64,000 bases of DNA from an uncultured Bacteroidia bacterium (lineage in GTDB: Bacteria > Bacteroidota > Bacteroidia > Bacteroidales > F082). Below, in pieces: positions 571 to 41,607 of this stretch. Both the position numbers and the translations under genes were made by a program. The stretch is taken from assembly GCA_902791165.1 (NCBI GenBank), contig CADAVB010000008.1, positions 12,512 through 76,511 on the forward strand, in the 5' to 3' direction. The notes below the pieces were generated by a model. It had not been told where the DNA came from. It ran no database searches and saw only the letters and a program-made list of their open reading frames with translations. Numbering within the stretch: the stretch's first letter is position 1; the number at the start of each line of letters is the position of its first letter.

Positions 571-643
571 GTCTCCATGTATCTCGTGTATCACGAGCAT
601 AATCACGGAAAAAAGATACGCGAAGATACGTGTAATACGTGGG
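571..643. repeat. Imperfect palindromic intergenic element, copy 1 (CTCCAyGTATCTCGyGTATC ... GATACGCGmAGATACGTGTAATACGTGG)
   Basis: The left arm tctccatgtatctcgtgtatc and right arm gatacgcgaagatacgtgtaatacgtggg are largely reverse-complementary. Homologous copies lie at 1938-1970 and 2346-2420. Confidence 0.6.
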
Positions 644-647
644 AAAA

Positions 648-24335: not shown

Positions 24336-24344
24336 TCGAGAAAC

Positions 24345-25526: not shown

Positions 25527-25744
25527 ATCATTTATTATTTATGTGTTTGTAATTATGGGTAGTCTCCTTTTTCCTCACCAAATCCAATGTCATCGAATTG
25601 AACACGTATGGCATATATAGAAACCCAATTCGGAAGTTTCGCTATGATGAAAAGACGAGGTTTATCCACAAACGCCGAGGCATCCCAACCAGAGGTATAA
25701 GAAAAATGGTTAAAGAGATAGCCCAATAAAACCACAATTTAATT

Positions 25745-26956: not shown

Positions 26957-26975
26957 AACATAACATTGGGATATT

Positions 26976-28157
26976 ATGACTAATTACGATTTATTACTTG
27001 AAAAAATAAGAGCCTTGGGTATGGATTACCGCTGGGCAGGTATGTTTGTTAAAAAACTGAAGGACGACGAAGTGGCATTTCCCGTAGCCGATGACGAAAA
27101 GAAACGCTGGGCTTTAGAACGTGGCTTCTATCCAGGACGTATCGAATTATACGGTTTGACGGAAGATAATTACAAGGATTATGTTCCCGATTTCCAATAT
27201 TTCATGCTGCACCCGATGAACAATCATTTCTTGAAGTGGCTCGACAAAACCACATTGAAATATGTGCTCAACAGCAATGGCTGCGAAGATACCATGCCGG
27301 AATATTATGTGTATGTTGAAAATGACCTATGTGGCGGCCGTTTCACTTATTTGATGGATTGTCCCACGGATATTCCAAAAAACAAAGATTTCCTGTGGAA
27401 TCTTCTTCAAAGGAAAAAGATTCTTGCCATGAAGCCAAATTCAGGGTCTTCGGGTGGACTTGGCTTTATCAAAATGGAGTTGCGCGAAAACGGGCTTTAC
27501 GAGAACAACAAACCGATAGATATGGCTCGTTTTGAGGAAATCCGAGACACGATGCGCAACTATATCATTACAGAATACTGCCATCAGCATCATGAACTTG
27601 CCAAAGTTTGGCCTGATAGCGAGTGCACGCTACGTGTAATAATGTGTAAGATACCACCAAAAAACCGATATGAAGAAACAAAGTGGTCTTGTGTTGCTTC
27701 TTTTGCTCGTTTTGGTTCTGCGGTAAGTGGTGGGACAAGTAATATGGCAACAGGGGGAGTTGCAATTGGTTTTGATTTCAAAACTGGGTTGTTTAAAGAA
27801 TATGGAATGTGTTATAAGTCTTTTACTAAAGACGGTAATTGTTTTCTTAATAAGCATCCAGATACAGGAATAGAATGGAAAGGGTTTATGATGCCAAATT
27901 GGATGTTGGTAAGAAATAAAATTGAAAGAATATGCCAACATTTATCTTCTCTAGATTACTTGGGATTAGATATTATTGTCACAGAAGATGGTATGAAACT
28001 ATGTGAAATTAATTCCCATCCAGCAAATGATTATGGTCAAATCTTATGCATGCCACATCTTATAGATAAAGAAGTGAAGTTGTTTTATGAGAAAAAGGGG
28101 CTTTATAGATACGATGGGAAAGATTTTTGTCAAGCATATTTTGAAAGCCAACAATGA
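26976..28157 (+). CDS. Sugar-transfer-associated ATP-grasp ligase, divergent paralogue 5
   Basis: ECTLRVIM, RFGSAVSGGTSNMATGGVAIGFDFKTG, HPDTGIEW, GLDIIVTEDGMKLCEINS. Confidence 0.7.
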   Translation: MTNYDLLLEKIRALGMDYRWAGMFVKKLKDDEVAFPVADDEKKRWALERGFYPGRIELYGLTEDNYKDYVPDFQYFMLHPMNNHFLKWLDKTTLKYVLNSNGCEDTMPEYYVYVENDLCGGRFTYLMDCPTDIPKNKDFLWNLLQRKKILAMKPNSGSSGGLGFIKMELRENGLYENNKPIDMARFEEIRDTMRNYIITEYCHQHHELAKVWPDSECTLRVIMCKIPPKNRYEETKWSCVASFARFGSAVSGGTSNMATGGVAIGFDFKTGLFKEYGMCYKSFTKDGNCFLNKHPDTGIEWKGFMMPNWMLVRNKIERICQHLSSLDYLGLDIIVTEDGMKLCEINSHPANDYGQILCMPHLIDKEVKLFYEKKGLYRYDGKDFCQAYFESQQ

Positions 28158-28756
28158 TTATGTATAAAAGGTTTTTTAAGCGAGTTCTCGATTTCCTTAT
28201 CTCGTTTGTTGCATTAATATGCATTAGTCCAATACTTCTGGTTTTTATAGTCGTATTGCATGTTGCCAATAAAGGCGCGGGGGCATTCTTTTATCAGGAA
28301 CGCCCAGGACTTAATGGTAAGATTTTCAAGGTTATCAAGTTTAAATCCATGACTGACGAGAAGGATGAGAATGGGGTGCTGCTTCCAAACGACCAACGAA
28401 TCACTAAAGTTGGTAAGTTTATCCGTAAATTCTCCATTGATGAACTTCCTCAACTCATCAATATACTCAAAGGAGACATGTCGCTCATAGGTCCTCGGCC
28501 ATTGTTAAAACGGTATCTTGAACTATATACACCCGAGCAGGCAAGACGTCATGAAGTTCGGCCTGGCCTTACAGGTTGGGCGCAGGTGCATGGTCGCAAC
28601 AACATCTCTTGGACAGAAAAATTCAAGTTGGATGTGTGGTATGTCGATCATTGTTCATTGTGGGTGGATATAAAAGTGATATTTATGACCATCAAGAATG
28701 TTTTAAGCGGTAAGGATGTAAGTGTGATAAGTGGAAGTTTCGATGGTACGAACTAA
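28154..28756 (+). CDS. Undecaprenyl-phosphate sugar phosphotransferase, small PglC/WcfS type (initiating transferase)
   Basis: Re-entrant helix FISFVALICISPILLVFIV, then YQERPGLNGKIFKVIKFKSM, DELPQLINILKGDMSLIGPRP. Confidence 0.9.
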   Translation: MIMYKRFFKRVLDFLISFVALICISPILLVFIVVLHVANKGAGAFFYQERPGLNGKIFKVIKFKSMTDEKDENGVLLPNDQRITKVGKFIRKFSIDELPQLINILKGDMSLIGPRPLLKRYLELYTPEQARRHEVRPGLTGWAQVHGRNNISWTEKFKLDVWYVDHCSLWVDIKVIFMTIKNVLSGKDVSVISGSFDGTN

Positions 28757-28768
28757 ATGGTATAGAAC

Positions 28769-29995
28769 ATGAAAGCATTAGTGATAGCAGGCGGACTTCC
28801 GCAAATAGAATTGATAAAACAACTGAAGGATAGGGGAATCGAGGCTTTGTTGGCCGATGGCAGCCCCAATGCCGTGGCACGACCTTATTGCGACAAGTTT
28901 TTCCATGTGGATGTGTTCGATATGGAGGCCATCAAGAATATCGCTATCAAGGAAAAAGTCGATTTCCTGATTACGGTTTGTGCCGATCAGGTGCTGCTGG
29001 TCGTGGCCAAAGTGTCGGAAGTTCTTGGTCTTCCGTGCTATATTGATTATGAAACTTGCCAAAATGTGTCGGACAAGATTCGCATGAAGCGAATTTTCAA
29101 GGCGAATGGCATCCCAACGACGGATTATGTGGAGACCGACCATCTTGATATGGATGTGATTGGCAAGTTGAACTATCCTTTGGTGGTGAAGCCCGTGGAT
29201 GCCTATAGTTCCAAGGGCGTGAGAAAAGCCGAGAATTTGGAGGAACTAAAACAATATTACGAAGAAGCCCACAAGATAAGCCGAAGCGGTGGCGTGATTG
29301 TGGAGGAGTTCTTTGCCGGCGACGAAATAAGTGTGGATGCCTTCGTGGTTAATGGAAAAGCACATGTGTTGAATGTCACGAATAGCGAGAAAGTAAAAGA
29401 CAAAGACCGTTTCGTCATCTTCCGTGGCCGTTATCCAGTAAAAGCGTCGGAAGCGGTTATGCGGCAGATTGAGGAGATTTGCCAGAAGATAGCAGACGGC
29501 TTCGGTTTGGTGAATGCGCCTTTGTTGGTGCAGTTGCTCCACAATGGCGATAAGGTTTCGGTGCTTGAGTTTTGTGCCCGCACGGGTGGCAACATGAAGT
29601 ATTTGTTGATTAAATATGCGTCGGGTGTTGATGTCATTGGTGCCACTATCGACATCACACTTGGGAAAGAACCCGATTTGAGCAAGAAAACCAAATCTTA
29701 TCATGTTGTCGTAAACGATTTCATTTATTGCCAACCAGGTGTTTTCGACCATTTCGAAGGCTTTGAGGAACTTGAAAAAGAAGGAATCATCAACGAATTT
29801 CATCCTGTTAGGATAAAGGGCACTGAAATGCGCGGCGTGACCAGCAGCAGTGACCGCATCGCAGGTATGAACATCGTGGCGGATTCGATTGAGCAGTATA
29901 ATGAGAAATTGCGCCAGATTAACAATACCGTAAAAGTGATGGATGCAGAAGGCAACGACATCATGCGGCACGATTTGTTACCAGAATTGAAATAA
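28769..29995 (+). CDS. ATP-grasp domain protein (PurK/CarB-like carboxylate-amine/thiol ligase)
   Basis: MKALVIAGG..., YPLVVKPVDAYSSKGV, VIVEEFFAGDEISVDAF, VLEFCARTGG. Confidence 0.75.
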   Translation: MKALVIAGGLPQIELIKQLKDRGIEALLADGSPNAVARPYCDKFFHVDVFDMEAIKNIAIKEKVDFLITVCADQVLLVVAKVSEVLGLPCYIDYETCQNVSDKIRMKRIFKANGIPTTDYVETDHLDMDVIGKLNYPLVVKPVDAYSSKGVRKAENLEELKQYYEEAHKISRSGGVIVEEFFAGDEISVDAFVVNGKAHVLNVTNSEKVKDKDRFVIFRGRYPVKASEAVMRQIEEICQKIADGFGLVNAPLLVQLLHNGDKVSVLEFCARTGGNMKYLLIKYASGVDVIGATIDITLGKEPDLSKKTKSYHVVVNDFIYCQPGVFDHFEGFEELEKEGIINEFHPVRIKGTEMRGVTSSSDRIAGMNIVADSIEQYNEKLRQINNTVKVMDAEGNDIMRHDLLPELK

Positions 29996-30016
29996 TAATT
30001 TAAAATATCGAGAATA

Positions 30017-30913
30017 ATGAAGTACTACACAATGCCTGAAACTCGCGAGTTTCTTGAAAGTATCGGTATGCCTGGCGGCGATCTTTACGATTTGCCAACA
30101 TCAGAAAAACGCTTCCCCGACGGAGGCCAGTATCGTTTTGAAGTTCCCGGAATCCAGGGACCTGGTCCGATGAAAGCCTTGCTGGAGGCTTTGGATGAAT
30201 ACGGAATCCAAATCCATAGGGTAACCCAAACCAAGGGTATCATGTTTTTGACCGATGACGAGATTAAACAAATGGTTGAATACGCGAAGAAATGGAATGT
30301 CCAGTTGGTATTAGCCTGCGGTCCGCGTGCCACGACCGACACTTCTGCTTCTGTAAAGACTGAGGAAGGCCAGCGCATGGGCTATCGCCTGCGCGGTGAA
30401 GAACAAATTGCCCGTGGTATCGAAGAAATCAGGCGTGGTGCCCGTTTGGGCGTCCGTGGGTTCCTTGTGTACGACGAGGGTCTGCTTTGGGCATTGGGCG
30501 AAGCCCGCAAGAAAGGCTTCATTCCTGCGGATTGCCACTTCAAGGTGAGTGCACATAGCGGCCACGGTAATCCGTGCTCGGCCCACTTGTTGGAAGCCAT
30601 TGGTGCCGACAGCATCAATCCTGTGCGCGACATACAAGTGCAAATGTTAGCCGCCATGCGTGCTGCCATCGATGTGCCGATTGACCTGCACACAGAAAAT
30701 CCCAAATCGAGCGGTGGCTTTATTCGCCATTACGAAGTGCCCGATTTCATCCGCGTGGCCGCGCCCGTTTATCTTAAGACAGGAGGTTCTGTGGCGGCCA
30801 ACCATAGTTATGACACCACGGAAAAAGAGGCTCGCCAGCGCGCTAAGCAGATTATGCTCGTTAAGAGGGTCATCGATACCTACTATCCCGAGGCCATCGT
30901 TTCGCCCAAATAA
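30017..30913 (+). CDS. Hypothetical protein (298 aa), possible alpha/beta-barrel enzyme; family not recognised
   Basis: Long ORF with strong coding composition and alternating hydrophobic-strand/helix pattern. No motif that I can name. Confidence 0.55.
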   Translation: MKYYTMPETREFLESIGMPGGDLYDLPTSEKRFPDGGQYRFEVPGIQGPGPMKALLEALDEYGIQIHRVTQTKGIMFLTDDEIKQMVEYAKKWNVQLVLACGPRATTDTSASVKTEEGQRMGYRLRGEEQIARGIEEIRRGARLGVRGFLVYDEGLLWALGEARKKGFIPADCHFKVSAHSGHGNPCSAHLLEAIGADSINPVRDIQVQMLAAMRAAIDVPIDLHTENPKSSGGFIRHYEVPDFIRVAAPVYLKTGGSVAANHSYDTTEKEARQRAKQIMLVKRVIDTYYPEAIVSPK

Positions 30914-30939
30914 AATAACTATAAACTCTCAAATTATAA

Positions 30940-32085
30940 ATGAGACATCATAGTTACAATCCAGATTTCAACTTTGTGAAGCTCCCAATGGAGTTCAACA
31001 AGTACACCGATCGTGACACGCTCCAGTATTGTCTCGGTGCTACACTCTACATGCCTGGCACAAAGGACATCAAGGAGAAGGTGGTGAACCATCAGCTGGC
31101 CGTGACATCCTTGGTCATGTGTTGTGAAGATGCTATCAAGGAAGAGGATTTGCCCATTGCCGAGCAGAATATTCTCGACCACATGGACTATTTTGCCGAT
31201 TTGATTGAGGAAGGAAAATTGTCCCATGATGATATCCCGCTGATATTTGTTCGTGTACGCAATCCCGAGCAGTTTGAGAGTTTCGCCGCGCGAATGACGG
31301 CAAAACAGGCATCGGTGCTGACGGGATTCAACTTTCCGAAGTTCAGTAGCGGTAATGCTTTCAAGGTTTTGCAGACTTTAGTTAAAGTCAACAATCGTTT
31401 AGGCGTTGTACTTTATGGCATGCCTATTCTTGAAGGCCCTGAAATCGCTTTTCGTGAAAGCCGAAAACAAGAGTTGTTGTTGCTTCGTAATATTCTTGAA
31501 CCATATAAAAATCTGATCCTCAACATTCGTGTTGGAGGAACAGACATGTCGTCGTTGTTCGGTGTGCGCCGTGGCATCAATTCTACGGTGTATGATATTA
31601 TGCCTGTGCGCGACGCTTTGAGCGATGTGCTGAATTTTTTCAACCGCTACAACGACTACTGTGTTTCTGCGGCAGTGTGGGAATACTTCCGCGCCTACAA
31701 GGATGACGACATTAACGATGTCATCAAGCGCAACTTCCACAATGCCCTTATCAAAGGTCAGGAGATTGTCAATCCCGCTATTGATGGCTTGATGAAGGAG
31801 GTGCTTATCGACCGCGCCAATGGCTTCGTGGGCAAAACCATCATCCACCCGACCCATGCACGCTTCGTGAACGCGATGTTTGCCGTGGTGGAAGAGGAAT
31901 ACCACGATGCGGTGCAGATTCTTCACACTTCGGGCGGCGTGGTCAAGAGCGAGCACGGCGACAAGATGAACGAGATAGGTCCGCACCGCCGTTGGGCTGA
32001 AAAAATCGCGAAAAGAGCCGATATTTACGGTGTTATCAAGAATGAGGATTCGGTGTTGAGCCTTGTTTTGGACGGAAAGGAATGA
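30940..32085 (+). CDS. HpcH/HpaI aldolase - citrate lyase beta (CitE)-like C-C bond lyase
   Basis: LGATLYMPG, VMCCEDAI, GFNFPKF, RVGGTDMSSLFG and KTIIHPTH follow the CitE/HpcH TIM-barrel pattern. Confidence 0.65.
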   Translation: MRHHSYNPDFNFVKLPMEFNKYTDRDTLQYCLGATLYMPGTKDIKEKVVNHQLAVTSLVMCCEDAIKEEDLPIAEQNILDHMDYFADLIEEGKLSHDDIPLIFVRVRNPEQFESFAARMTAKQASVLTGFNFPKFSSGNAFKVLQTLVKVNNRLGVVLYGMPILEGPEIAFRESRKQELLLLRNILEPYKNLILNIRVGGTDMSSLFGVRRGINSTVYDIMPVRDALSDVLNFFNRYNDYCVSAAVWEYFRAYKDDDINDVIKRNFHNALIKGQEIVNPAIDGLMKEVLIDRANGFVGKTIIHPTHARFVNAMFAVVEEEYHDAVQILHTSGGVVKSEHGDKMNEIGPHRRWAEKIAKRADIYGVIKNEDSVLSLVLDGKE

Positions 32086-33032
32086 CAAGCATGAAAATCG
32101 TTTTAGGAACCATGAATTTCGGTCCGCAGTTGGACTTGGAGGCCAGTCGCACGATGGTGAATGCCTACCTTGCCACAGGCGGACGGGAATTGGACACGGC
32201 CTACGTCTATAATGGCGGAACGACGGAAGACTATTTGGGCGAGATTTTGCCCGAACTGAATCCGCAAAGTTACGAGATTGCCACGAAAGTGCATCCGCGC
32301 ATCACGGGAAAACTCGACCGCGAAACAATTCTGATGGAGTTCACGGAATCGTTGCGTCGCATGAAACGCGATTCGGTCGATTTGCTCTATTTCCATTTCC
32401 CTGACGGCAAAACGCCCATTGACGAGGCTTTGGAAACCGTTGCAGAATTGCACGAACAAGGCAAAATCAAGGAGTTGGGATTGAGCAATTATCCCGCTTG
32501 GCAGGTCATCGATATTGCATACAAATGCGACAAAATCGGTTGCCCGCGCCCGACGGTTTATCAAGGAATGTACAATGCCTTGTGCCGCAATGTGGATCCA
32601 GAACTCTTTCCCGCCATCCGCTCGTTGGGAATGCGTTTCTACGCTTTCAATCCCTTGGCAGGCGGAATGCTGACGGGCAAGCACCATCATTTTGAAGACG
32701 CGCCTGAAGCGGGTCGTTTCGCCCGACTGAAGAGTTACCGCGATCGTTATTGGAAGCTCTCTTATTTCGATGCCATGGAGGAAATTCGTTTGGCTTGTGA
32801 AAAAGAAGGCATCGTGATGGTTGAAGCAGCCTATCGTTGGTTGGTGAACCATTCTTGCATGAGAACCGAACTGAACGATGGTATCTTGTTGGGTGCTTCT
32901 CGTCAGGAGCAGATGGAGCAAAATCTTGCTGCTGCGAAGAAAGGTTCGTTGCCAGAAAACATTATTGCCGCGATGGACGAAGCATGGGAAATCGCCAAGC
33001 CCGACAGTCCGGCTTATTTTAAGTTTGTTTGA
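32082..33032 (+). CDS. Aldo/keto reductase
   Basis: GTMNFG, LDTAYVYNGGTTE, DLLYFHFPD, GLSNY, FYAFNPLAGG. Confidence 0.85.
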   Translation: MTSMKIVLGTMNFGPQLDLEASRTMVNAYLATGGRELDTAYVYNGGTTEDYLGEILPELNPQSYEIATKVHPRITGKLDRETILMEFTESLRRMKRDSVDLLYFHFPDGKTPIDEALETVAELHEQGKIKELGLSNYPAWQVIDIAYKCDKIGCPRPTVYQGMYNALCRNVDPELFPAIRSLGMRFYAFNPLAGGMLTGKHHHFEDAPEAGRFARLKSYRDRYWKLSYFDAMEEIRLACEKEGIVMVEAAYRWLVNHSCMRTELNDGILLGASRQEQMEQNLAAAKKGSLPENIIAAMDEAWEIAKPDSPAYFKFV

Positions 33033-33034
33033 AA

Positions 33035-34378
33035 ATGAACGTATCACAATCATTTTTTGCAGAGATAGACAAAATCGCAAAGTGTGAAGTTCCCGTAGAG
33101 GTGATGGCGCGGTCAAAACGCTCGTTGCTTGATTATTTGGCGGTAACTTGCGCGGGTGCGGCCTTCCAAAAGGACAAACTCAACGGCTATTTTGATTTTG
33201 CCCAACCCGAAGCGGGCGATTTCAAGGCCATTGGCACGGGCAAAAGCCTTGTCTTGAAAGAAGCCGTGTTTCTCAACGGCCTCAACGCCCATGCCTTGGA
33301 CTTTGACGACGGCACCAATTCGGGTATCATCCATTTGGGTTCGCCTATCTTCTCGTTGTTGTTGCCGCTTTCGCAGCGCTACAACATTACCATTGAGGAC
33401 ATGCTGAAGGCTGCCATTGTAGGCTATGAGGCTTCCTACACTTTGGCCGTTTCCATTCAACCCAAACACAAGGCATTGGGCTATCATGCCACGGGAACTT
33501 GCGGCACGATTGGCGCGACTTTGGCAGCAGCGTATATGCTTGGATTGACGGAAGAAGAACGTTATCAGGCGTTTGCGACGGCTTGTGTGGCGGCATCGGG
33601 AATGTTGAAAGTGTTGGACGACGGTTCGGAGTTGAAGCCTTACAATGTGGCGAAAACCGCGCTGTTGTCATTGACGAGCTTACAACTGGCCAAGTCCGGT
33701 TTCAAGGGACACACCGACCCACTTGGCGGCTATCGCGGTTTCCTCAAAATGATGTCGGGCGACGAAAACACTGAAATCAAGCCGACTTTGCTCAATGGCA
33801 CTTACGCCATCATGAAGAGTTATACAAAGCCTTACGCTTCGTGCCGTTACACCCATCCGCCCGTTGAGGCCGCCATCCATCTGCGCAATCAACATGGCTT
33901 GAAGCCAGAGAATGTCGAGCAAATTAAGGTGGAAACCTACAATCTTGCCGTTTCGGGTCACGACCACACGGACATCAAAGGGGCTTATTCTGCGAAAATG
34001 AGTACGCCTTACAGCACGGCGGTTGCGCTCATCTATGGAAGGGCGGGTCTGCAAGAGTTCAGCGAAGAAAACTTAAACAACTCCGTCGTTCAAGCATTGA
34101 CGCGGAAAGTTCAGGTTGTTTCCGACGACGAAATGAGCCGCATTTTCCCCGATAAGCAAAGTGCCGTTGTTACAATTGTGACGGAAAACGGCACTTGTTC
34201 CGAGCGTGTGGACTTCCCGAAAGGTGAACCCGAAAATCCGATGACGGAAACAGAATTCCGTGAACGTTATGCGAATTTGATGGCTTATGGAAACGTGGCC
34301 AAGGAGACTTATGAAACGATTTATGAATTGGTAAACAAGCCGAATTTGAAGGCTTCGGAATTGATAAAAGACTTATAG
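33035..34378 (+). CDS. MmgE/PrpD-family protein (2-methylcitrate dehydratase / cis-aconitate decarboxylase superfamily)
   Basis: LLDYLAVTCAGA, NAHALDFDDG, IHLGSPIF, YHATGTCGTIGA and KPYASCRYTHP are PrpD-family blocks. ATG 33035 is preferred over TTG 33029. Confidence 0.85.
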   Translation: MNVSQSFFAEIDKIAKCEVPVEVMARSKRSLLDYLAVTCAGAAFQKDKLNGYFDFAQPEAGDFKAIGTGKSLVLKEAVFLNGLNAHALDFDDGTNSGIIHLGSPIFSLLLPLSQRYNITIEDMLKAAIVGYEASYTLAVSIQPKHKALGYHATGTCGTIGATLAAAYMLGLTEEERYQAFATACVAASGMLKVLDDGSELKPYNVAKTALLSLTSLQLAKSGFKGHTDPLGGYRGFLKMMSGDENTEIKPTLLNGTYAIMKSYTKPYASCRYTHPPVEAAIHLRNQHGLKPENVEQIKVETYNLAVSGHDHTDIKGAYSAKMSTPYSTAVALIYGRAGLQEFSEENLNNSVVQALTRKVQVVSDDEMSRIFPDKQSAVVTIVTENGTCSERVDFPKGEPENPMTETEFRERYANLMAYGNVAKETYETIYELVNKPNLKASELIKDL

Positions 34379-34379
34379 T

Positions 34380-35507
34380 ATGGTAAACCAAAAAGAACTA
34401 TTTGACGCTTTGTGCGACATGGGCGTTGATTTCTTCACCGGCGTGCCCGACTCGCTGTTGAACGACTTCTGCCTTTATATGACTAACAACCTGACTGCAA
34501 GGCAGCATGTGATGGCCGCCAACGAGGGCAACGCCATCGGCATCGCGGCGGGTCATTACATGGCCACAGGCAAAATGCCTTTGGTGTATATGCAGAACTC
34601 TGGCATCGGAAATGCCACCAATCCGCTGTTGTCATTGACACACGATTGCGTGTATGGTATTCCCATGCTGCTCGTCATCGGTTGGCGCGGCGACCCGTCC
34701 ATCAACGACCACGCCCAGCATAAGAAACAAGGCGAATTGACACCTATCTTGATGAAGGATATGGATATTCCTTACGAGATTCTCGACGACGAAAACACGG
34801 TGATTGAGAAATTCCGTTGGGCTGCCAACAAAGCTCGTGAAATCTCTTCACCCGTCGCCTTGATTGCGAAAAAGGCCATCCTCACCCAAAAAGAGAAGAA
34901 GCAGCAATATCCCGAAAGCCGCTTGATGAACCGCGAGGAAGCCGTTTCAGCCGTTATCGATGTGTTCGGCGAAGACGCGGTGTATCTTGGCACTACGGGT
35001 CGCGCCACTCGCGAGGTGAACGAACAATTGAAGATGCACGGTATCGGCGAAGGCCACGAATGGCAGAATGTTGGCTCGATGGGACATGTTTCGTCGGTGG
35101 GTCTGGGTTTGGCCTTGGCTCGCCCCGACAAGAAGGTTGTCGTCTTTGATGGCGATGCTGCCGCCGTGATGCATTTGGGCGCATTTGCCACCAATTGCCG
35201 CTACAAGGCTCCGAACCTCATCCATATTGTGTTGAACAACGGCGTGAACGAATCCGTTGGTGGACAAGAATCGGCTGGCCAGTTGATTAACCTTACGGGT
35301 GTCGCCGAAGCCTGCGGCTACCGCAATGTTGGTCATGCCGTTGAAACGAAAGAAGAATTGCAGCAGGTGCTGAAAACCTTGCCGGGTGGCGACATGCCTA
35401 CGTTTATAGATATATATGTCCGTCAAGGAATCCGTCCCGATATGCCTAAATTAAATATCGACCATAAGGCACAGAAGGTTGCCTTGATGAATTACCTAAA
35501 AAAGTAA
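34380..35507 (+). CDS. Phosphonopyruvate/sulfopyruvate decarboxylase-like ThDP-dependent decarboxylase
   Basis: The N-terminus ELFDALCDMGVDFFTGVPDSLL and GNAIGIAAGH, a later GSMGHVSSVGLGLA, and the VFDGDAA...LNNG ThDP motif are typical of AepY/Ppd/ComDE. Confidence 0.8.
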   Translation: MVNQKELFDALCDMGVDFFTGVPDSLLNDFCLYMTNNLTARQHVMAANEGNAIGIAAGHYMATGKMPLVYMQNSGIGNATNPLLSLTHDCVYGIPMLLVIGWRGDPSINDHAQHKKQGELTPILMKDMDIPYEILDDENTVIEKFRWAANKAREISSPVALIAKKAILTQKEKKQQYPESRLMNREEAVSAVIDVFGEDAVYLGTTGRATREVNEQLKMHGIGEGHEWQNVGSMGHVSSVGLGLALARPDKKVVVFDGDAAAVMHLGAFATNCRYKAPNLIHIVLNNGVNESVGGQESAGQLINLTGVAEACGYRNVGHAVETKEELQQVLKTLPGGDMPTFIDIYVRQGIRPDMPKLNIDHKAQKVALMNYLKK

Positions 35508-35511
35508 GCGC

Positions 35512-36018
35512 ATGATTGAATTGACGACACCTTTCAGCGAGGAAGCCATCGCGCAATTGAAAGTCGGCGACGTGGTGACCATCACGGGCAACATTTTTAC
35601 AGGCCGTGATGCCGTGCTTCCCAAGATTGTGAAAGCCGCAGAGGAAGGCGCTTTGAAAGATTTGGGCATTGATTTGCAAGGCGCGGTCATTTTCCATACT
35701 GCCGTCAGTCCGGCGGGGGTTGGCCCGACTTCAAGCAACAAAGTGGAGATTGAATGTACCTTTGGCCCGCTGTCGAAACACGGCGTGAAAATGCACCTCG
35801 GCAAAGGAGCAATTTCAAAGGAAACGGTAAAGGTCTTGGCCGAGCATAATGCCGTCTTTGCCATCATTCCGCCAGTAACCGCTTTGTTAGGCAGTCAGAC
35901 CATGGAACAGGAAATCGTCGCCTTCCCTGAATTGGGCATGGAGGCGTTCAACCGTTTGAAAGTGGTGAAATACCAAGCCATCATAGCCGCCGCACAAGGT
36001 CAATCCATTTATGAATAA
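35512..36018 (+). CDS. Fe-S type hydro-lyase, tartrate/fumarate family, beta subunit
   Basis: LKVGDVVTITGNIFTGRDAVLPKI...GKGAIS... is characteristic of the FumA C-terminal/TtdB domain. Confidence 0.85.
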   Translation: MIELTTPFSEEAIAQLKVGDVVTITGNIFTGRDAVLPKIVKAAEEGALKDLGIDLQGAVIFHTAVSPAGVGPTSSNKVEIECTFGPLSKHGVKMHLGKGAISKETVKVLAEHNAVFAIIPPVTALLGSQTMEQEIVAFPELGMEAFNRLKVVKYQAIIAAAQGQSIYE

Positions 36019-36072
36019 TTGTAGGGGCTGACCTATGTGTCAGCCATTTGTAGGGACGCACCGCGTGCGTCC
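36019..36072. repeat. Two tandem TGTAGGG-prefixed hairpins (REP-like) between the beta and alpha subunit genes
   Basis: tgtagg GGCTGAC ctatgt GTCAGCC, then ttgtagg GGACGCAC cgc GTGCGTCC. Confidence 0.6.
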
Positions 36073-36089
36073 GAGAAAAAGCCAATAAT

Positions 36090-36935
36090 ATGAGCAATAT
36101 AATTGAAAAAGTGGCCGATTGCCTCGTCAGGGCCGGCTCCACCTTCCGCGAAGACCAGAAGGAAGCCTACCGCCAAGCAATCGCCGACGAAGCCAACGCA
36201 CAGTCGTGCTGGGTGATGCAGCAAGTGCTGGATAACGCCTTGGTTGCCGAGGAGAGAAGAAGTCCGTTGTGTGACGACACAGGCATTCCGCATCTGTTTC
36301 TCGAGGTCGGAAAAAACCGTTCCGTTTCGGGGGAAATGATGCAAGAGATCATGGAAGGCGTGGAGATGGGTTTGCGCCAGTTGCCAGGTCGTCCGATGGC
36401 CATCATGGGTGATGACAATGCACGTATCGACCAAAGCGGTGGCTTGAACCCTGATTCAGGAGCATTGAAACCTTCACCCTTCCTCATCAAACCCATTGAT
36501 GAAGATGTCATCCGCTTGACGGTTTTGATGTTGGGTGGCGGTCCGGCCATTCGTGGCATCACACAGCGTGTGTTCCACAAGCATAATGTGGATGTGGTCA
36601 TTGATGAAATCGTGAACCGCGCCACCGAAGGCGTATCGAAACTCGGTTGTAGCCCTTGTGTGTTGGCGGTTGGCGTCGGTCGCAGTCAGTTTGAGGCCAC
36701 TTCGATGATGATGGAGGCGATGGCCAAGGGCGATTTCAGCAAACAAACCGAATTTGAAAAGAAAATCACAAAAAAAGTGAATGAAGCCAACATTGGTCCG
36801 CTCGGATTGGGCGGCAAACACAGCGTTTTGGCGACTTTCGCCAAAGTTGGCCCGCAACGCGCCAGCGGTGTTCGCATCGTGGCTTTGAGGCCCTGCTGCT
36901 GCTTTGAGCCGAGGAGGGCGAGTGTGGAATTGTAA
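36090..36935 (+). CDS. Fe-S type hydro-lyase, tartrate/fumarate family, alpha subunit
   Basis: The PLCDDTGIPHLFLEVG block (PlCqDTG) and Cys-rich C-terminus are typical of the FumA N-terminal/TtdA domain. Confidence 0.85.
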   Translation: MSNIIEKVADCLVRAGSTFREDQKEAYRQAIADEANAQSCWVMQQVLDNALVAEERRSPLCDDTGIPHLFLEVGKNRSVSGEMMQEIMEGVEMGLRQLPGRPMAIMGDDNARIDQSGGLNPDSGALKPSPFLIKPIDEDVIRLTVLMLGGGPAIRGITQRVFHKHNVDVVIDEIVNRATEGVSKLGCSPCVLAVGVGRSQFEATSMMMEAMAKGDFSKQTEFEKKITKKVNEANIGPLGLGGKHSVLATFAKVGPQRASGVRIVALRPCCCFEPRRASVEL

Positions 36936-36951
36936 GAATAAAGTTGTTACT

Positions 36952-37038
36952 ATGAACAAAAGTATCTACCTCTGCCTAGCCCACATGAGCGAGGCAGGAC
37001 TTGAACAAAAGTATATCCAAGAGGCTTTCGAAATATAA
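36952..37038 (+). pseudogene. Orphan 5' fragment (28 codons) of the DegT-type aminotransferase gene
   Basis: 36964-37031 is 66/68 identical to 38152-38219 (IYLCLAHMSEAGLEQKYIQEAF). The reading frame stops 2 codons after the homology ends. Confidence 0.8.
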
Positions 37039-37100
37039 TCTTTTCAAAAAACCATCCTTTTTGGGAAAAAGTTATATTTTTGCGGTGTAATACAACAGCT

Positions 37101-37322
37101 ATGTCGGAAAAGACGCTCAATACGATTGGTTTTGTGGCAATGATTGTTGCCTTGTTCGCCAAGAAGCATCATTTCAGCGAACCCGTAGCCTTTCATTATC
37201 TTCGTCAATATGGGGGAGCCAGCCTTTTGGTGAACCATTACGGATATCTTCACACACAGGATTATGACCAGTTGGTTGATGATTTGTCCGATTACTGCCG
37301 TCATCAAGGAGGAACCCTGTAA
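37101..37322 (+). CDS. DUF3791-like small helical protein
   Basis: 73 aa from ATG 37101. Its size, position and sequence style match the small proteins that flank DUF3990 in Bacteroidales. Confidence 0.55.
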   Translation: MSEKTLNTIGFVAMIVALFAKKHHFSEPVAFHYLRQYGGASLLVNHYGYLHTQDYDQLVDDLSDYCRHQGGTL

Positions 37323-37798
37323 TGAAACTTTATCACGGAAGCAATATAATCATTGAAAGCGTTGATCTGTCGAAGTCTCGCCCTTACAAAGATTTCGGAA
37401 AGGCGTTTTACTTGTCGGCGGACGAACAACAGGCGTGGGAACGTGCTTACGCCGCTATCACAATGTGGGGCGGTACTCCTTGTGTGAGTGCCTTTGAGTT
37501 TGATGAAAAGCAGTTGTCGTCAAGCGAAATGAAAGTGTTGATATTCGATTCTTATTCTGAGGAATGGGCGGATTTCGTTTTTGCCAATCGCCGACATCAG
37601 AAACCTCCCTTTCAACATGATTACGACATTGTGTTCGGTCCGATTGCCAACGACAAGGTTGGGGAACAAGTTGCGCTTCTCAAGGGAGGCTACATTACAA
37701 AAGAACGCTTCTTTCGGAAACTGAAACTGATGAAAGGCATCACTTTTCAGTATGCTTTTTGTTCCGAATTGTCAATAGGTAAATTGAAGAAACTATGA
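37322..37798 (+). CDS. DUF3990-like protein with an ADP-ribosyltransferase-like H-Y signature
   Basis: N-terminal KLYHGSN and DFGKAFYLSAD. TAATG overlap with the upstream ORF and ATGA overlap with the downstream ORF. Confidence 0.6.
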   Translation: MKLYHGSNIIIESVDLSKSRPYKDFGKAFYLSADEQQAWERAYAAITMWGGTPCVSAFEFDEKQLSSSEMKVLIFDSYSEEWADFVFANRRHQKPPFQHDYDIVFGPIANDKVGEQVALLKGGYITKERFFRKLKLMKGITFQYAFCSELSIGKLKKL

Positions 37799-38016
37799 CA
37801 CAACAGAAGCGCATAGAATTTCTGAAACTCAAACTGACAGAAGAACTTGCCGTCATCTTAATAGAGGAAACGGGATGCTCCATAGAGAATGCATTTGAAA
37901 TTTTATACAATTCCCAAACCTACTCCAAACTATCTAATCCTAACACTAAACTGTTTTTTCAAAGCGCAGGGTATGTGTACTCGCTCCTTGAAGAGGAATT
38001 GAACCAAAACCATTAA
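37795..38016 (+). CDS. DUF3791-like small helical protein (second copy)
   Basis: 73 aa, coupled by ATGA overlap. It is paralogous in style to 37101-37322. Confidence 0.5.
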   Translation: MTQQKRIEFLKLKLTEELAVILIEETGCSIENAFEILYNSQTYSKLSNPNTKLFFQSAGYVYSLLEEELNQNH

Positions 38017-38133
38017 TTCTTTTTTAAAAAGAAACTTTCATGCGCATGGTTTTTTGGTTCTGTGTCCACCTGCATTTGACCACCGCAAGTTGGTAAATAG
38101 ACCGAAAGAAATAAACAATTAAACGAGCATAAT

Positions 38134-39420
38134 ATGTCAGTTAAGAACCGCATCTACCTCTGCCTGGCCCACATGAGCGAAGCAGGACTTGAACAAAAGT
38201 ATATCCAAGAGGCTTTCGACACCAACTGGGTGGTGCCGCTTGGGCCGAATGTCAATGGGTTTGAGAAAGACTTGGAAGACTTTGTGAATGAGATTGCGGG
38301 TCAAGCCCGCAATGACAAACCGTTGAACAAACGCGTGGTGGCGCTTTCGGCCGGAACTGCTGCCGTGCATCTGGCCCTGATTGCCTGCGGCGTGAAGCCT
38401 GGCGACGAGGTCATTGTGCAGAGTTTCACGTTCTGCGCTTCGTCGCACCCGATTACCTATTTGGGCGCGACCCCCATTTTCGTTGATTCAGAGAAGGACT
38501 CTTGGAACATCGACCCGGAATTGATGGAAGAGGCCATCAAAGACCGAATCGCCAAGACGGGCAAGAAACCTAAAGCCATTGTGCCGGTCGCTCTTTATGG
38601 AATGCCTTACGACATCGACCGCATCATGGATATTGCCAACCGCTACGACATCCCTGTCATCGAGGATGCCGCCGAGGGTTTCGGCAGCCGCTGGAAAGGG
38701 CAGATGTTGGGTACTTTTGGTAAATATGGCGTGTTGTCGTTCAACGGCAACAAGATGATCACCACCTCGGGCGGCGGCGCGTTGATTACACCCGACGAGG
38801 ACGCTTGGCGCGAGATTATGATGTACGCCACGCAATACCGCGAGAGTTATCCCTACTACCAGCACGAGAAAATCGGCTTCAACTACCGAATGTCGAACAT
38901 CTGCGCGGGCATCGGGCGCGGCCAGATGACGGTGGCCAACGACCATATCGCGCACCACAAGCATGTCTTTGAGCTTTACAAGGAGCTGCTGAAAGACGTG
39001 AAGGGCATCGAGGTTCACGGCAATCCCGATGAGCGTTATGACAGCAACTTCTGGCTGAACACCATCACCATCGCTCCCGAAGTGAAGGTAAAAGGGCAAG
39101 AAAACGCGTACAAAACCGTGGTTCAAGGTGCTGTTGGTGGTGCGGCGGGTGTCATCCATGTGGCGGATTCGGCCACTACGGATTGCCAACCTAATGACAA
39201 CGTGGAAGCCATGCGCGTTTTCCTCGACGAGCGAGGCATCGAGGCACGTCCGCTTTGGAAGCCCATGCATAAGCAGCCGGTTTACAAAGATGCTCCGGCG
39301 TATGTAAACGGCGTTTCGGAGGCTTTGTTCAAGGTGGGAATGTGCTTGCCTTCAGGTCCTTACGTTTCAGATGAGGATGTAAGATACATCGTGGATTGCA
39401 TCAAGGAGGCGATAGAATAG
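38134..39420 (+). CDS. DegT/DnrJ/EryC1/StrS-family PLP aminotransferase (WcfR/PglE-like sugar 4-aminotransferase)
   Basis: FTFCASSHP, VIEDAAEGFGS, SFNGNKMITTSGGGAL (PLP-lysine region) and a GFNYRMSN block. Confidence 0.85.
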   Translation: MSVKNRIYLCLAHMSEAGLEQKYIQEAFDTNWVVPLGPNVNGFEKDLEDFVNEIAGQARNDKPLNKRVVALSAGTAAVHLALIACGVKPGDEVIVQSFTFCASSHPITYLGATPIFVDSEKDSWNIDPELMEEAIKDRIAKTGKKPKAIVPVALYGMPYDIDRIMDIANRYDIPVIEDAAEGFGSRWKGQMLGTFGKYGVLSFNGNKMITTSGGGALITPDEDAWREIMMYATQYRESYPYYQHEKIGFNYRMSNICAGIGRGQMTVANDHIAHHKHVFELYKELLKDVKGIEVHGNPDERYDSNFWLNTITIAPEVKVKGQENAYKTVVQGAVGGAAGVIHVADSATTDCQPNDNVEAMRVFLDERGIEARPLWKPMHKQPVYKDAPAYVNGVSEALFKVGMCLPSGPYVSDEDVRYIVDCIKEAIE

Positions 39421-41223: not shown

Positions 41224-41251
41224 ACAACTCCGATTAAGGTTATTAGATAGT

Positions 41252-41291
41252 AAAAGCCTCTGCCAAAGTTTTCGGTGGGAGGCTTTTTTTG
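41252..41291 (+). terminator. Rho-independent terminator after hydG
   Basis: AAAAGCCTC tgccaaagttttcggtgg GAGGCTTTTTTT. Confidence 0.75.
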
Positions 41292-41314
41292 TGCGTTGTT
41301 ATCGTATTTTCATC

Positions 41315-41322
41315 TATATTTG
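41315..41322 (+). promoter_or_regulatory. Bacteroidetes -7 box (TATATTTG) preceding a non-coding structured region
   Basis: Exact TAnnTTTG match 24 nt after the hydG terminator T-tract. No credible ORF follows before 41608. Confidence 0.4.
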
Positions 41323-41329
41323 CACCCAG

Positions 41330-41558: not shown

Positions 41559-41607
41559 GGATGCTTGTTACGCTGAATAGGTCAATCGCCAACAAAACGC
41601 AGACAAT

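Follow-up and report, generated by a model that had tools for sequence, protein, structure and literature searches.

The 2-methylcitrate cycle, carried out by PrpC, PrpD, aconitase and PrpB, joins an acyl-CoA to a 2-oxo acid in a Claisen step, dehydrates the product with a PrpD-family enzyme, re-hydrates it and uses a TIM-barrel C–C enzyme to give a 2-oxo acid. Citrate fermentation operons encode citCDEFXG together with oxaloacetate decarboxylase, and the methylaspartate pathway uses mesaconase plus citramalate lyase. In Bacteroides fragilis, the 2-aminoethylphosphonate (AEP) pathway of polysaccharide B consists of the PEP mutase AepX, the decarboxylase AepY and the transaminase AepZ. To judge from how Pfam describes PF15617 and PF15632, biosynthetic modules associated with Ter operons pair a PF15617 lyase with an ATP-grasp ligase (PF15632). 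The first-pass annotation of this locus had pointed to known N-acylated 4-amino sugars, and amino sugars that carry hydroxy-dicarboxylic acids in amide linkage have indeed been described: 2-hydroxyglutar-5-yl is found on QuiNAc4N in Tenacibaculum maritimum and malyl groups on amino sugars of Flavobacterium psychrophilum, Vibrio vulnificus, Pseudoalteromonas rubra and Shewanella algae (PMC3210612). These acids are N-linked through their distal carboxylate, their hydroxyl can be glycosylated or O-acetylated, and D and L forms both occur (PMC3210612). The genes for these structures are not known (PMC9796276).

In the 64-kb window, the whole stretch of DNA analysed here, a Bacteroidales capsule locus ends in an eight-gene co-oriented block. 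This block represents one version of a gene cassette that is widespread yet undescribed and whose most likely role is to make a small hydroxy-carboxylic acid and couple it, through an amide bond, to a surface-polysaccharide amino sugar. We found no description of this pathway in the literature, in keeping with the earlier remark that the gene combination matched no described pathway.

The cassette shares its logic with the methylcitrate cycle and with the citrate-to-isocitrate segment of the TCA and glyoxylate cycles. However, the PrpD-family protein is the sole member homologous to the methylcitrate cycle, and it misses the PrpD equivalog models widely. The condensing enzyme is CitE-like rather than citrate-synthase-like, the hydratase is a class I fumarase-type Fe–S enzyme rather than aconitase, the TIM barrel lies outside ICL/PEPM, and the setting is biosynthetic and glycan-linked. 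A sister operon in Clostridia (L023) resembles both this cycle and citrate fermentation: it opens with the gene for a sigma-54 regulator that has a PrpR_N domain and combines a complete citrate-lyase-type complex (citCDEFXG) with the cassette's PrpD, hydro-lyase and dehydrogenase genes and a 77%-identical TIM-barrel gene, the latter placed where a decarboxylase or second lyase would be expected. In contrast, the window has a stand-alone PF15617 enzyme instead of an ACP-dependent complex, no regulator and no transporter, and its direction is presumably synthetic. Both the cassette and the B. fragilis polysaccharide B genes include, within a Bacteroidales capsule locus, ThDP decarboxylases belonging to one clade, but the cassette lacks PEP mutase and AEP transaminase, and its partners are carboxylic-acid enzymes. 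It shares the lyase–ligase pairing of the Ter module but not the Ter genes, phosphoribosyltransferase or HAD phosphatase, being found instead with PrpD, hydro-lyase, ThDP enzyme and glycan genes. Hydroxyglutaryl- and malyl-sugars are the kind of product predicted for the cassette, and their D and L acid forms and O-acetylation fit its interchangeable D- and L-specific reductases and adjoining Acyl_transf_3 genes. To make malate or 2-hydroxyglutarate a reductase suffices; the cassette has several C–C and hydro-lyase steps, and its acid is therefore probably another.

Organization of the locus

The block is flanked on its 5' side by a small PglC-like polyprenyl-phosphate glycosyl-1-phosphate transferase, the initiating transferase (28154..28756; PF02397 Bac_transf, 225 bits), and on its 3' side by a DegT-family sugar aminotransferase (38134..39420; PF01041, 297 bits); these and all features below lie on the + strand. 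Between them follow, in order, an ATP-grasp ligase, a 298-aa protein that we call U32L, a CitE-like lyase, an aldo-keto reductase (AKR), a PrpD-family protein, a ThDP decarboxylase and a split Fe–S hydro-lyase. The open reading frames of the first-pass annotation all exist where it had placed them, and Pfam and NCBIfam bear out their family assignments. The spacing is as tight as described (a 4-nt overlap at 32082-32085, the AKR stop at 33030-33032 followed by the PrpD ATG at 33035, and a 1-nt gap at 34378/34380), and the 9.4 kb given for the distance from transferase to aminotransferase measures 9378 nt. The seven genes counted there are in fact eight (seven enzymes), and the gene list had missed a DUF3791 and DUF3990 gene pair (37080..37798; Pfam) and a remnant of the DegT 5' end comprising its first 28 codons (36953..37038). 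Pair and remnant sit between the hydro-lyase and DegT and are bounded by a 77-nt direct repeat, of which the remnant is the left arm.

The arrangement had been taken for an anomaly of this window, but the same eight genes recur in the same order in other Bacteroidales loci (L001-L004). There the DUF3791/DUF3990 pair, which is an insertion outside the pathway, is absent and DegT lies directly 3' of the hydro-lyase. The PglC-like transferase occupies the same position (72% identity), the DegT counterparts are 82% identical, and directly 3' of DegT lies a homologue (75% identity) of the window's CapD/PglF-like NDP-sugar 4,6-dehydratase (639..1937; Pfam Epimerase and Polysacc_synt_C). The latter probably supplies the 4-keto-6-deoxy-HexNAc that DegT aminates, and we infer its link to the cassette. 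The block has a GC content of 0.48-0.52, like the flanking genome and unlike the low-GC middle of the capsule locus, and Pfam annotation of the window genes revealed no transporter or regulator in it.

Enzymes of the cassette

The CitE-type acyl-CoA Claisen lyase/synthase (30940..32085; PF15617 C-C_Bond_Lyase, 358.7 bits) has the ED and GxxG[KR]TxIHP motifs. Its AF2 model (pLDDT 82.6) retrieved exclusively CLYBL, malyl-CoA, citramalyl-CoA or CitE lyases among the top 50 Foldseek matches, with TM scores, normalised to target length, of 0.55-0.78. The MmgE/PrpD-family protein (33035..34378; PF03972 and PF19305, the N and C domains) scores far under the PrpD equivalog cut-offs; among solved structures it is closest to B. 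subtilis IRG1 (7bra) and IDS epimerase (2hp3), and D93, H102, H153, K203, K267 and H276 are conserved. By homology it would be a di- or tricarboxylate dehydratase, isomerase or decarboxylase. The hydro-lyase belongs to the class I fumarase/tartrate dehydratase family. Its beta subunit (35512..36018; PF05683 Fumerase_C) is under every equivalog cut-off, and its alpha subunit (36090..36935; PF05681 Fumerase) scores 108.6 bits against TIGR00722 (cut-off 100.65), with three cysteines (61, 187 and 270) conserved in 95 homologues.

The ThDP-dependent 2-oxoacid decarboxylase (34380..35507) belongs to the phosphonopyruvate/sulfopyruvate-decarboxylase clade, scoring 390.6 bits against the phosphonopyruvate decarboxylase model TIGR03297 (cut-off 312.5), and its nearest PDB entry is 9iz3 (alpha and beta subunits). 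It occurs together with the AKR (32082..33032; PF00248, 190.7 bits) in 59 loci. This pair and the alternative reductases 2-Hacid_dh or Ldh_2 are mutually exclusive except in L025, where 2-Hacid_dh lies in the same flank as the pair; one further locus (L026) has the AKR without the ThDP enzyme. The AKR fills the cassette's reductase slot and in the window probably reduces an aldehyde made by the ThDP enzyme.

U32L (30017..30913), listed earlier as an orphan, is encoded by the signature gene of the cassette and had no match in Pfam, NCBIfam or PDB sequences. Its AF2 model (pLDDT 93.9) is a confidently predicted (beta/alpha)8 TIM barrel, remotely U32-like; the best TM score to a PDB fold is only ~0.5. 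Peptidase_U32 is matched weakly by 27 of 37 relatives. Twelve arginines of U32L are conserved, and no cysteine is. At least 575 species encode the protein, which keeps 71-97% identity between phyla (Bacteroidota, Bacillota, Eggerthellaceae, Kiritimatiellae, Desulfobacter, Balneola and Vreelandella), and its gene is usually adjoined by a reductase or ThDP gene. We propose that U32L is a metal-dependent C–C lyase or decarboxylase with a polycarboxylate substrate.

The ligase (28769..29995; PF13535, PF07478 and a weak LAL_C2 match) is of the L-amino-acid-ligase type, its nearest solved structure being the L-amino acid ligase 3vot, and also matches PF15632 (31.6 bits; cut-off 29.1). We propose that it forms an amide bond between the acid and an amine. 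DegT scores 327.6 bits against the LegC-family model, under the cut-off of 420, and is the proposed source of the acid's acceptor, a 4-amino-4,6-dideoxy sugar.

Distribution and modularity

Homologues of these genes occur together in ~100 independent loci, a co-occurrence far beyond chance. Clustering of ORFs in 179 related loci found U32L in all 179, PrpD in 121, the CitE-like enzyme in 105, the hydro-lyase alpha and beta subunits in 99 and 95, the ATP-grasp ligase in 75, AKR, ThDP enzyme and DegT in 59 each, 2-Hacid_dh in 47 and Ldh_2 in 23. The core in glycan loci is U32L, the CitE-like enzyme, one 2-oxoacid reductase and the ATP-grasp ligase, to which PrpD, hydro-lyase and ThDP decarboxylase come as optional additions. 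Minimal cassettes (L020, L022, L010 and L014) have neither PrpD nor hydro-lyase, and the hydroxyl-shift steps are therefore not essential to the core chemistry. Three loci without the Fe–S hydro-lyase have Lyase_1/ADSL_C and a PF04199 hydrolase in its place, and Acyl_transf_3 genes adjoin the reductase in several cassettes. The gene families, their conserved co-occurrence and the functions that swap in the same slot are direct observations. The organic-acid unit for a glycan that the first-pass annotation had envisaged is indeed conserved, mainly in surface-glycan loci, but as a modular cassette rather than a fixed pathway wedged into a gene pair.

In 67 loci the flanks reach 7 kb or more in both directions, and 45 of these have recognisable glycan markers. 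The cassette is accompanied by DegT, RmlA/RmlB or a CapD-like 4,6-dehydratase, and the ATP-grasp ligase; DegT adjoins it in many other loci of several phyla, together with RmlA/RmlB in Desulfobacter, Vreelandella, Mediterraneibacter and Balneola. Firmicutes copies adjoin GT2, EpsG, Wzy and Wzx genes, and a few of them have no ATP-grasp gene within 10 kb. A setting outside glycan loci, the outcome that would have spoken against a glycan role, was found for a minority of the family but not for the close relatives: some operons combine these enzymes with regulators, with citrate-lyase complexes or with transporters for tricarboxylates, and Methanobrevibacter-like contigs also have them. Besides L023, other operons with U32-like genes carry the tricarboxylate transporter genes TctABC, and the Methanobrevibacter-like contigs (31-32% G+C, one bearing the tRNA-modification gene TiaS) cluster the enzymes with a short citrate synthase. 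These non-glycan operons have neither ligase nor aminotransferase, and point to a citrate- or methylcitrate-like intermediate.

Discussion

We favor, with a probability of roughly 0.55, a model in which the window holds one variant of an acid-decoration cassette that has spread horizontally among surface-polysaccharide loci and decorates glycans with an acid amide-linked to a DegT-made 4-amino sugar. The enzyme order, substrates, product, carboxylate used and acceptor in this model are read from protein families and gene neighbourhoods. The CitE-type enzyme would start by condensing a central 2-oxo acid with acetyl-CoA (or propionyl-CoA), and the resulting hydroxy acid would resemble citrate or citramalate; the PrpD-family protein would dehydrate it and the Fe–S hydro-lyase re-hydrate it, shifting the hydroxyl as aconitase does, or PrpD plus aconitase in the methylcitrate cycle. 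U32L could then carry out metal-dependent C–C cleavage or beta-decarboxylation to a 2-oxo di-acid. In the window's variant the ThDP enzyme would take off C1 and the AKR reduce the aldehyde, so that the product is an omega-hydroxy acid with one carbon fewer, whereas sister cassettes would use a 2-hydroxyacid dehydrogenase, D- or L-specific, to arrive at a 2-hydroxy acid instead. The ligase would activate one carboxylate of the product and couple it to the 4-amino group that DegT puts on the 4-keto-6-deoxy-HexNAc from the CapD-like dehydratase, and the PglC-like transferase would start the repeat unit on that sugar. The new hydroxyl may be a site of glycosylation or O-acetylation, as in the known hydroxyglutaryl- and malyl-sugars. 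Under this model the ThDP enzyme must be a paralogue with a substrate other than phosphonopyruvate. Against it, no single nameable product uses every enzyme without loose ends; with plain oxaloacetate or 2-oxoglutarate as the 2-oxo acid, there would be no need for the enzymes upstream.

The recipient of the acid, or of an amine made from it, might instead be something other than the DegT-made sugar, for example the carboxylate of a uronic acid, or a side chain of peptide-like character assembled by the numerous further ATP-grasp enzymes that these loci encode. We consider this reading doubtful. The ligase's kinship to L-amino acid ligases would suit it, as would the five ATPgrasp_ST and three PGA_cap genes upstream in the window and such genes, of either or both kinds, inside or beside the cassette in L005-L008, L011, L014 and L056. 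In L012 and L013 the ATP-grasp ligase is swapped (28-32% identity) while the acid genes remain 71-94% identical, and a second ATP-grasp gene stands where DegT would follow the hydro-lyase, so a DegT product cannot be the acceptor in every case. However, the immediate neighbourhood of DegT, often with RmlA/RmlB, across phyla argues for an amino sugar, such acids are N-acyl groups in known structures (PMC3210612), and the window variant's product, once decarboxylated and reduced, should still carry a carboxylate rather than an amine.

The TIGR03297 score raises the question of a phosphonate or sulfonate pathway, in which the ThDP enzyme would be a true phosphonopyruvate decarboxylase, U32L a non-canonical PEP mutase or sulfopyruvate-forming enzyme, and the reductases would yield 2-hydroxyethylphosphonate or phosphonolactate as the decoration. 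Ldh_2 of sister cassettes is closest to M. jannaschii L-sulfolactate dehydrogenase (ComC; 2x06, 262 bits) and 2-Hacid_dh to phosphoglycerate dehydrogenases; the decarboxylase or reductase beside U32L is the kind of enzyme that pulls the unfavourable PEP mutase reaction (logic as in PMC8942020); more distant U32-like genes adjoin TauD, HD, aldehyde dehydrogenase and ATP-grasp genes; and the window has a LicD gene. But the PEP mutase motif EDKx5NS is absent from the 64-kb window and from 88 related loci, which makes a phosphonate route unlikely. In addition, neither LicD nor, among the 179 clustered loci, any nucleotidyltransferase is conserved with the cassette, 2-hydroxyethylphosphonate would offer the ligase no carboxylate, and the U32-like genes in the citrate-lyase operon, which has no phosphonate or sulfonate function, and beside tricarboxylate transporters argue the same way. 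We regard this pathway as quite improbable. The block could also be a catabolic or anaplerotic operon, a methylcitrate- or TCA-like shunt merely located in capsule loci, as its GC content and the same enzyme quartet with citCDEFXG and a PrpR_N regulator, with TctABC or with short citrate synthase might suggest. This appears highly improbable: relatives more than 70% identical are overwhelmingly co-oriented in glycan loci of unrelated phyla, the PF15617 lyase, ATP-grasp ligase and DegT go with the glycan form only, and the block itself has no transporter or regulator.

Results

The open reading frames listed in the first-pass annotation between 28154 and 39420 are all present on the forward strand, with the overlaps and gaps it described, and matches to Pfam and NCBIfam models bear out their family assignments. 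A PglC-like transferase (28154-28756) is followed by an ATP-grasp ligase (28769-29995), a 298-residue protein without a family match (30017-30913; hereafter the TIM barrel, after its predicted fold), a CitE-like lyase of family PF15617 (30940-32085), an aldo-keto reductase (AKR; 32082-33032), an MmgE/PrpD-family protein (33035-34378), a ThDP enzyme that passes the phosphonopyruvate decarboxylase model (34380-35507), the beta (35512-36018) and alpha (36090-36935) subunits of an Fe-S hydro-lyase, and a DegT aminotransferase (38134-39420). The latter matches PF01041 with 297 bits and scores below the cut-offs of LegC, PseC and the other equivalog models. That list, correct in what it named, had overlooked a DUF3791/DUF3990 gene pair (37080-37798) and a 28-codon remnant reading frame that copies the start of DegT (36953-37038). 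A 77-nt direct repeat (36955-37031 and 38143-38219; 92% identical) that duplicates the first codons of DegT lies on either side of the pair, as if the pair had been inserted at the beginning of this gene with an intact copy remaining. The two hydro-lyase genes are separated in the window by a 71-nt spacer (36019-36089) containing the inverted repeats ggctgac..gtcagcc and ggacgcac..gtgcgtcc, whereas in related loci they overlap.

Rather than a local wedge between transferase and aminotransferase, as had been supposed, these genes form a conserved cassette. The same ten genes occur in the same order in other Bacteroidales contigs (L001-L004), where DegT directly follows the hydro-lyase and a CapD-like gene comes next; the CapD-like 4,6-dehydratase of the window lies at 639-1937. 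The search for co-occurrence advised in the first-pass annotation found homologues together in other genomes; 179 loci with a TIM-barrel gene were compared. The TIM barrel has about 6100 database relatives, the best 120 of which share 82% identity or more, and a scan of one genome per species placed it in at least 575 species. In the best 80 of these it is 71-97% identical to the window protein, and their hosts include Bacteroidota, many Bacillota, Eggerthellaceae, Kiritimatiellae, Desulfobacter, Balneola, Taibaiella, Vreelandella, a spirochaete and a Bdellovibrio relative. Cultured strains that carry the cassette include Prevotella sp. khp7, Mediterraneibacter massiliensis Marseille-P2086, Sporofaciens musculi WCA-9-b2, Sarcina sp. 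DSM 11001, Eubacterium ruminantium FB3002, Desulfobacter latus AcRS2 and Vreelandella nigrificans. A metagenome scan with one distant homologue as query gave no matches. Between the window and Desulfobacter latus, the TIM barrel (73% identity) is conserved above every partner protein: the CitE-like lyase (57%), AKR (55%), hydro-lyase beta and alpha (55% and 52%), ThDP enzyme (50%), PrpD (43%), DegT (33%) and ATP-grasp (31%).

To describe the modularity of the cassette, all open reading frames of the 179 loci were clustered and combined with tblastn tables. AKR and the ThDP enzyme co-occur (59 loci each) and exclude 2-Hacid_dh (47 loci) and Ldh_2 (23 loci), the sole exception being one locus (L025) with both kinds in the same flank; another (L026) has AKR without the ThDP enzyme. 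Three unrelated families therefore serve one reductase slot, and the decarboxylase is an optional extra. The Ldh_2 of sister cassettes is closest to the L-sulfolactate dehydrogenase of M. jannaschii (2x06, 262 bits), an enzyme that acts on oxaloacetate and 2-oxoglutarate as well; for their 2-Hacid_dh the closest enzymes are phosphoglycerate dehydrogenases and glyoxylate reductases. Three loci, from Vreelandella, Balneola and Taibaiella, lack the Fe-S hydro-lyase and carry in its place a Lyase_1/ADSL_C protein and a PF04199 hydrolase, which looks like an alternative way of adding water across a double bond. Some cassettes of Prevotella and other Bacteroidales have neither PrpD nor hydro-lyase and consist of a core of TIM barrel, ATP-grasp, CitE-like enzyme and 2-Hacid_dh, and in one locus (L056) the hydro-lyase is present while PrpD is absent. 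Usually the gene directly beside that of the TIM barrel encodes the reductase or the ThDP enzyme. In Prevotella-type loci (L020, L022, L019, L026 and L012) a recurrent protein of 436-453 residues adjoins the cassette. Its N-terminus is hydrophobic and resembles that of a lipoprotein, and it has no relative in the PDB; the 445-residue gene beside the TIM barrel in minimal cassettes, which shows these features, was judged not to be a hidden PrpD.

Recognisable glycan markers (DegT, PglC, Wzx, RmlA/B, CapD, ATPgrasp_ST and PGA_cap) are present in 45 of the 67 loci that have at least 7 kb on both sides. The first-pass annotation had considered that the module might be found mostly outside glycan loci, as a catabolic operon with transporters and regulators; a minority of family members lie in such operons, but the close relatives by and large do not. 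The gene pattern of the window is the commonest full pattern (19 of the 45 glycan loci), followed by the 2-Hacid_dh form with PrpD and hydro-lyase (9 of 45). By Pfam annotation, the cassette neighbours Wzy, Wzx, GT2, DegT, RmlB and RmlA in Mediterraneibacter, RmlA and DegT in Desulfobacter and Vreelandella, and GT2 and EpsG in its Firmicutes form. Two loci (L012 and L013) have acid genes 71-94% identical to those of the window, an ATP-grasp and a PglC of merely 28-32% and 37-41% identity, and a second ATP-grasp in place of DegT. We read this arrangement as a constant acid module joined to differing ligase and acceptor parts.

In the window the cassette is the closing block of a long capsule locus that also encodes a Wzx flippase, a Wzy-like protein, a glycosyltransferase and LicD. 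Genes for ATPgrasp_ST ("sugar-transfer associated" ATP-grasp) and PGA_cap (CapA-like) proteins are unusually numerous: five of the former and three of the latter, mostly in alternating pairs, lie at 10019-18712 and 26976-28157. The locus additionally encodes YdjC and GNAT proteins, a further ATP-grasp (21143-22378) and a 608-residue BPL_N/DUF4988 protein. Such a gene content suggests a glycan rich in side chains of amide or peptide-like type. A LicD-family gene and then a 367-residue protein without a family occupy 22371-24335, and neither LicA/B/C nor a nucleotidyltransferase was seen nearby. Directly before the flippase gene, 6570-7778 encodes a 402-residue protein whose sole domain is AlaDh_PNT_N and which might be an opine-type (carboxyethyl-amino acid) synthase. 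A stretch of low G+C content (0.37) at 4418-6384 separates the UDP-GlcNAc 2-epimerase from the remaining locus and encodes an AAA_15/AAA_21/DUF3696 ATPase with a 294-residue partner without a family, possibly a defence gene pair. The acid block (29000-37000) has a G+C content of 0.48-0.52, like the flanking genome, whereas the middle of the locus (8000-27000) has 0.33-0.42; the locus is thus a mosaic. Downstream, 39933-47080 encodes a radical-SAM/BATS protein, a type III restriction-modification pair (methylase, 41608-43281; Res helicase, 43283-45928) and a Fic protein.

The predicted model of the 298-residue protein is a confident TIM barrel (pLDDT 93.9). In a structure search, as advised in the first-pass annotation, its best solved matches reach a TM-score of only about 0.5. 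The best of these is the U32 peptidase Mk0906 (TM 0.42-0.50); the others are class II aldolases, ALA dehydratase, ICL/PEPM members and the carboxyltransferase domains of pyruvate carboxylase and oxaloacetate decarboxylase. By sequence the window protein has no match in the PDB. The Peptidase_U32 model PF01136 does not match it and weakly matches 27 of 37 relatives (best E-value 2.4e-8). Cysteines that hold a 4Fe-4S cluster are a feature of the U32 family, which includes the Fe-S hydroxylases UbiU/V, TrhP and RlhA; no cysteine is conserved in the TIM barrel among these 37 or among 167 homologues. The conserved residues are twelve arginines together with D35, E42, D153, E154, D223, H225, K176 and K254, a pattern that would suit a metal-dependent enzyme for a polyanionic substrate. 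Similarity to the ICL/PEP mutase superfamily (PrpB, ICL) is at the level of unrelated TIM barrels (TM 0.44-0.49), and there is no Pfam match to that superfamily. Neither Pfam nor NCBIfam has a model for the TIM-barrel family, some members of which are called "peptidase" in NCBI records.

The CitE-like lyase contains the ED and GxxG[KR]TxIHP motifs, and its residues E63-D64 and G295..G298..I302-H303-P304, unchanged across 22-31 homologues, line up with the motifs of malyl-CoA lyase. Its sole match among the curated CitE models and PF15617 is the latter: PF03328 and TIGR01588 are missed (citE 18.9 bits versus 443.4), and the RipC model scores 19.9 bits against a cut-off of 375. The top 50 Foldseek matches of its predicted model (pLDDT 82.6) are exclusively CitE-type acyl-CoA lyases (CLYBL, malyl-CoA lyase, M. 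tuberculosis CitE and citramalyl-CoA lyase; TM 0.55-0.78, normalised to target length), and no pyruvate aldolase is among them. We therefore ranked lower a role as a class II pyruvate aldolase on a route from 4-hydroxy-2-oxoglutarate to 2,4-dihydroxybutyrate. The PrpD-family protein has both MmgE/PrpD domains (N, 149.6 bits; C, 137.9 bits) and falls short of the PrpD equivalog level (32.4 bits versus 575; 25.9 versus 458); among solved structures it is closest to B. subtilis IRG1 and IDS epimerase rather than to PrpD proper. The hydro-lyase has the domains PF05681 and PF05683 and passes TIGR00722 (108.6 versus 100.65), with C61, C187 and C270 of the alpha subunit conserved in 95 homologues, and it scores below the equivalog cut-offs for fumarate hydratase (106.2 bits versus 276), TtdA (66.6 versus 365) and TtdB (68.9 versus 264). 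The ATP-grasp ligase passes the core models, scores 24 bits against the LAL_C2 cut-off of 29.4, and has the LAL 3vot as its best solved relative (70 bits).

Several loci carry the same enzymes outside a glycan setting. Sedimentibacter and two other Clostridia MAGs (L023, L029 and L048) share a citrate-lyase operon that begins with a PrpR_N-domain sigma-54 regulator, citC, citD-E, citF, citX-G and 2-Hacid_dh and continues with TIM barrel, PrpD, a second TIM barrel, hydro-lyase beta and alpha, and Ldh_2; downstream of these come genes for an Ntn-type acyltransferase/hydrolase and a peptide/opine-type ABC importer. The two TIM-barrel gene copies are identical to each other, and their product is 77% identical to that of the window. 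This operon may be a catabolic mirror of the cassette. A 53%-identical relative is found in the order GntR, TIM barrel, TctCBA, PrpD and DHDPS, and an environmental locus combines two PrpD genes, an aminotransferase, the hydro-lyase, a maleate-isomerase-like protein, TIM barrel and TctABC with a CitE-like lyase and a succinyl-CoA-synthetase-like pair. Contigs of 31-32% G+C (L151, L159, L140 and L143) have PrpD, TIM barrel, hydro-lyase alpha and a short citrate synthase, preceded by DUF3100 and a LysO-like membrane protein and followed by a nitroreductase; the short citrate synthase occurs in thirteen loci, these four and nine more. One of them, L151, comes from a human gut metagenome and additionally encodes TiaS and subunit I of a V-type ATPase, which is why we take these contigs to be from Methanobrevibacter. 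Four unrelated Claisen enzymes thus accompany the same trio of TIM barrel, PrpD and hydro-lyase, which points to an intermediate that resembles citrate, citramalate or methylcitrate. More distant TIM-barrel relatives (35-47% identity) lie in other kinds of cluster.

Discussion

The best-supported reading of the cassette is a route resembling the methylcitrate cycle, each step of which we infer. The CitE-type enzyme would condense an acyl-CoA with a 2-oxo acid, PrpD and the hydro-lyase would shift the hydroxyl, and the TIM barrel would cleave or decarboxylate the product to a 2-oxo di-acid. In the sister form this acid would be reduced to a D- or L-2-hydroxy acid; in the window form, decarboxylation by the ThDP enzyme and reduction by AKR would yield an omega-hydroxy acid. 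The ATP-grasp ligase would then join a remaining carboxylate to the amine made by DegT. We also considered a split isocitrate dehydrogenase, in which a dehydrogenase acts with the TIM barrel as beta-decarboxylase to give 2-oxoglutarate, and set it aside because the window would be left without a reductase for the aldehyde of the decarboxylase and because D- and L-specific dehydrogenases would not be interchangeable at an internal step.

Glycans of the predicted kind provide a chemical template for the proposed product. Tenacibaculum maritimum carries a 2-hydroxyglutar-5-yl group on QuiNAc4N, with the acid hydroxyl glycosylated, and D- or L-malyl groups, partly O-acetylated, occur in F. psychrophilum, V. 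vulnificus, P. rubra and S. algae (PMC3210612). The genes for these structures are not known (PMC9796276), and the T. maritimum O-antigen paper makes no mention of the cassette genes. Acyl_transf_3 genes adjoin the reductase in several cassettes, which would fit, by analogy, an O-acetylated hydroxy acid. Malate, 2-hydroxyglutarate, 3-hydroxypropionate or 4-hydroxybutyrate as the product would not need the upstream enzymes.

Several other readings deserve consideration. A phosphonate or sulfonate route is suggested by the ThDP enzyme, which exceeds the cut-off of the phosphonopyruvate decarboxylase model TIGR03297 (390.6 bits versus 312.5), by the ComC-like and PGDH-like reductases and by gene adjacency in the cassette. 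However, the PEP mutase motif EDKx5NS is absent from six-frame translations of the window and of 88 related loci, no member of the PEP mutase family is found among the annotated reading frames of the window, and the near-identical TIM barrel of the citrate-lyase operon argues for carboxylate chemistry. Annotations as phosphonopyruvate decarboxylase in cassette loci that lack PEP mutase are probably mis-assignments. The citrate-lyase operon and the Tct-associated clusters are the setting expected if the acid genes had a purely metabolic role, which is unlikely for the close relatives, found largely beside glycan markers. Less probably, the acid is attached to something other than a 4-amino sugar; L012 and L013 have a second ATP-grasp where DegT would stand, whereas RmlA or RmlB accompanies DegT in Mediterraneibacter, Desulfobacter and Vreelandella.

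With the methylcitrate-cycle-like route as the preferred reading, we tentatively propose a wider one, to which we give odds well short of even: that the TIM barrel founds a new enzyme family and belongs, with the PrpD-family protein, the Fe-S hydro-lyase and one of four mutually non-homologous Claisen enzymes, to an unrecognised pathway of this type in anaerobes. It would have been put to three uses, namely acid decoration of capsules in many phyla, polycarboxylate breakdown in Clostridia and environmental bacteria, and a use in Methanobrevibacter-type methanogens. A literature search found no description of the cassette or its pathway. The TIM-barrel family and the enzyme set are not known to have been described, and precursor synthesis combined with ligation in a glycan locus is already known in general. 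The non-orthologous replacements, in which three kinds of reductase, two of hydratase and four of Claisen enzyme fill the same slots, constrain the chemistry.

Our analysis provides a first context-based role for a highly conserved TIM-barrel family that has no curated model. If the wider reading is correct, the cassette would also supply the missing genetics of amino sugars that bear hydroxy acids. How gut and rumen Bacteroidales and Clostridia are recognised by the immune system, and how susceptible they are to phages, is shaped by their capsules, yet few capsule structures are known; for hundreds of species the cassette predicts an acyl decoration that is charged and hydroxylated.
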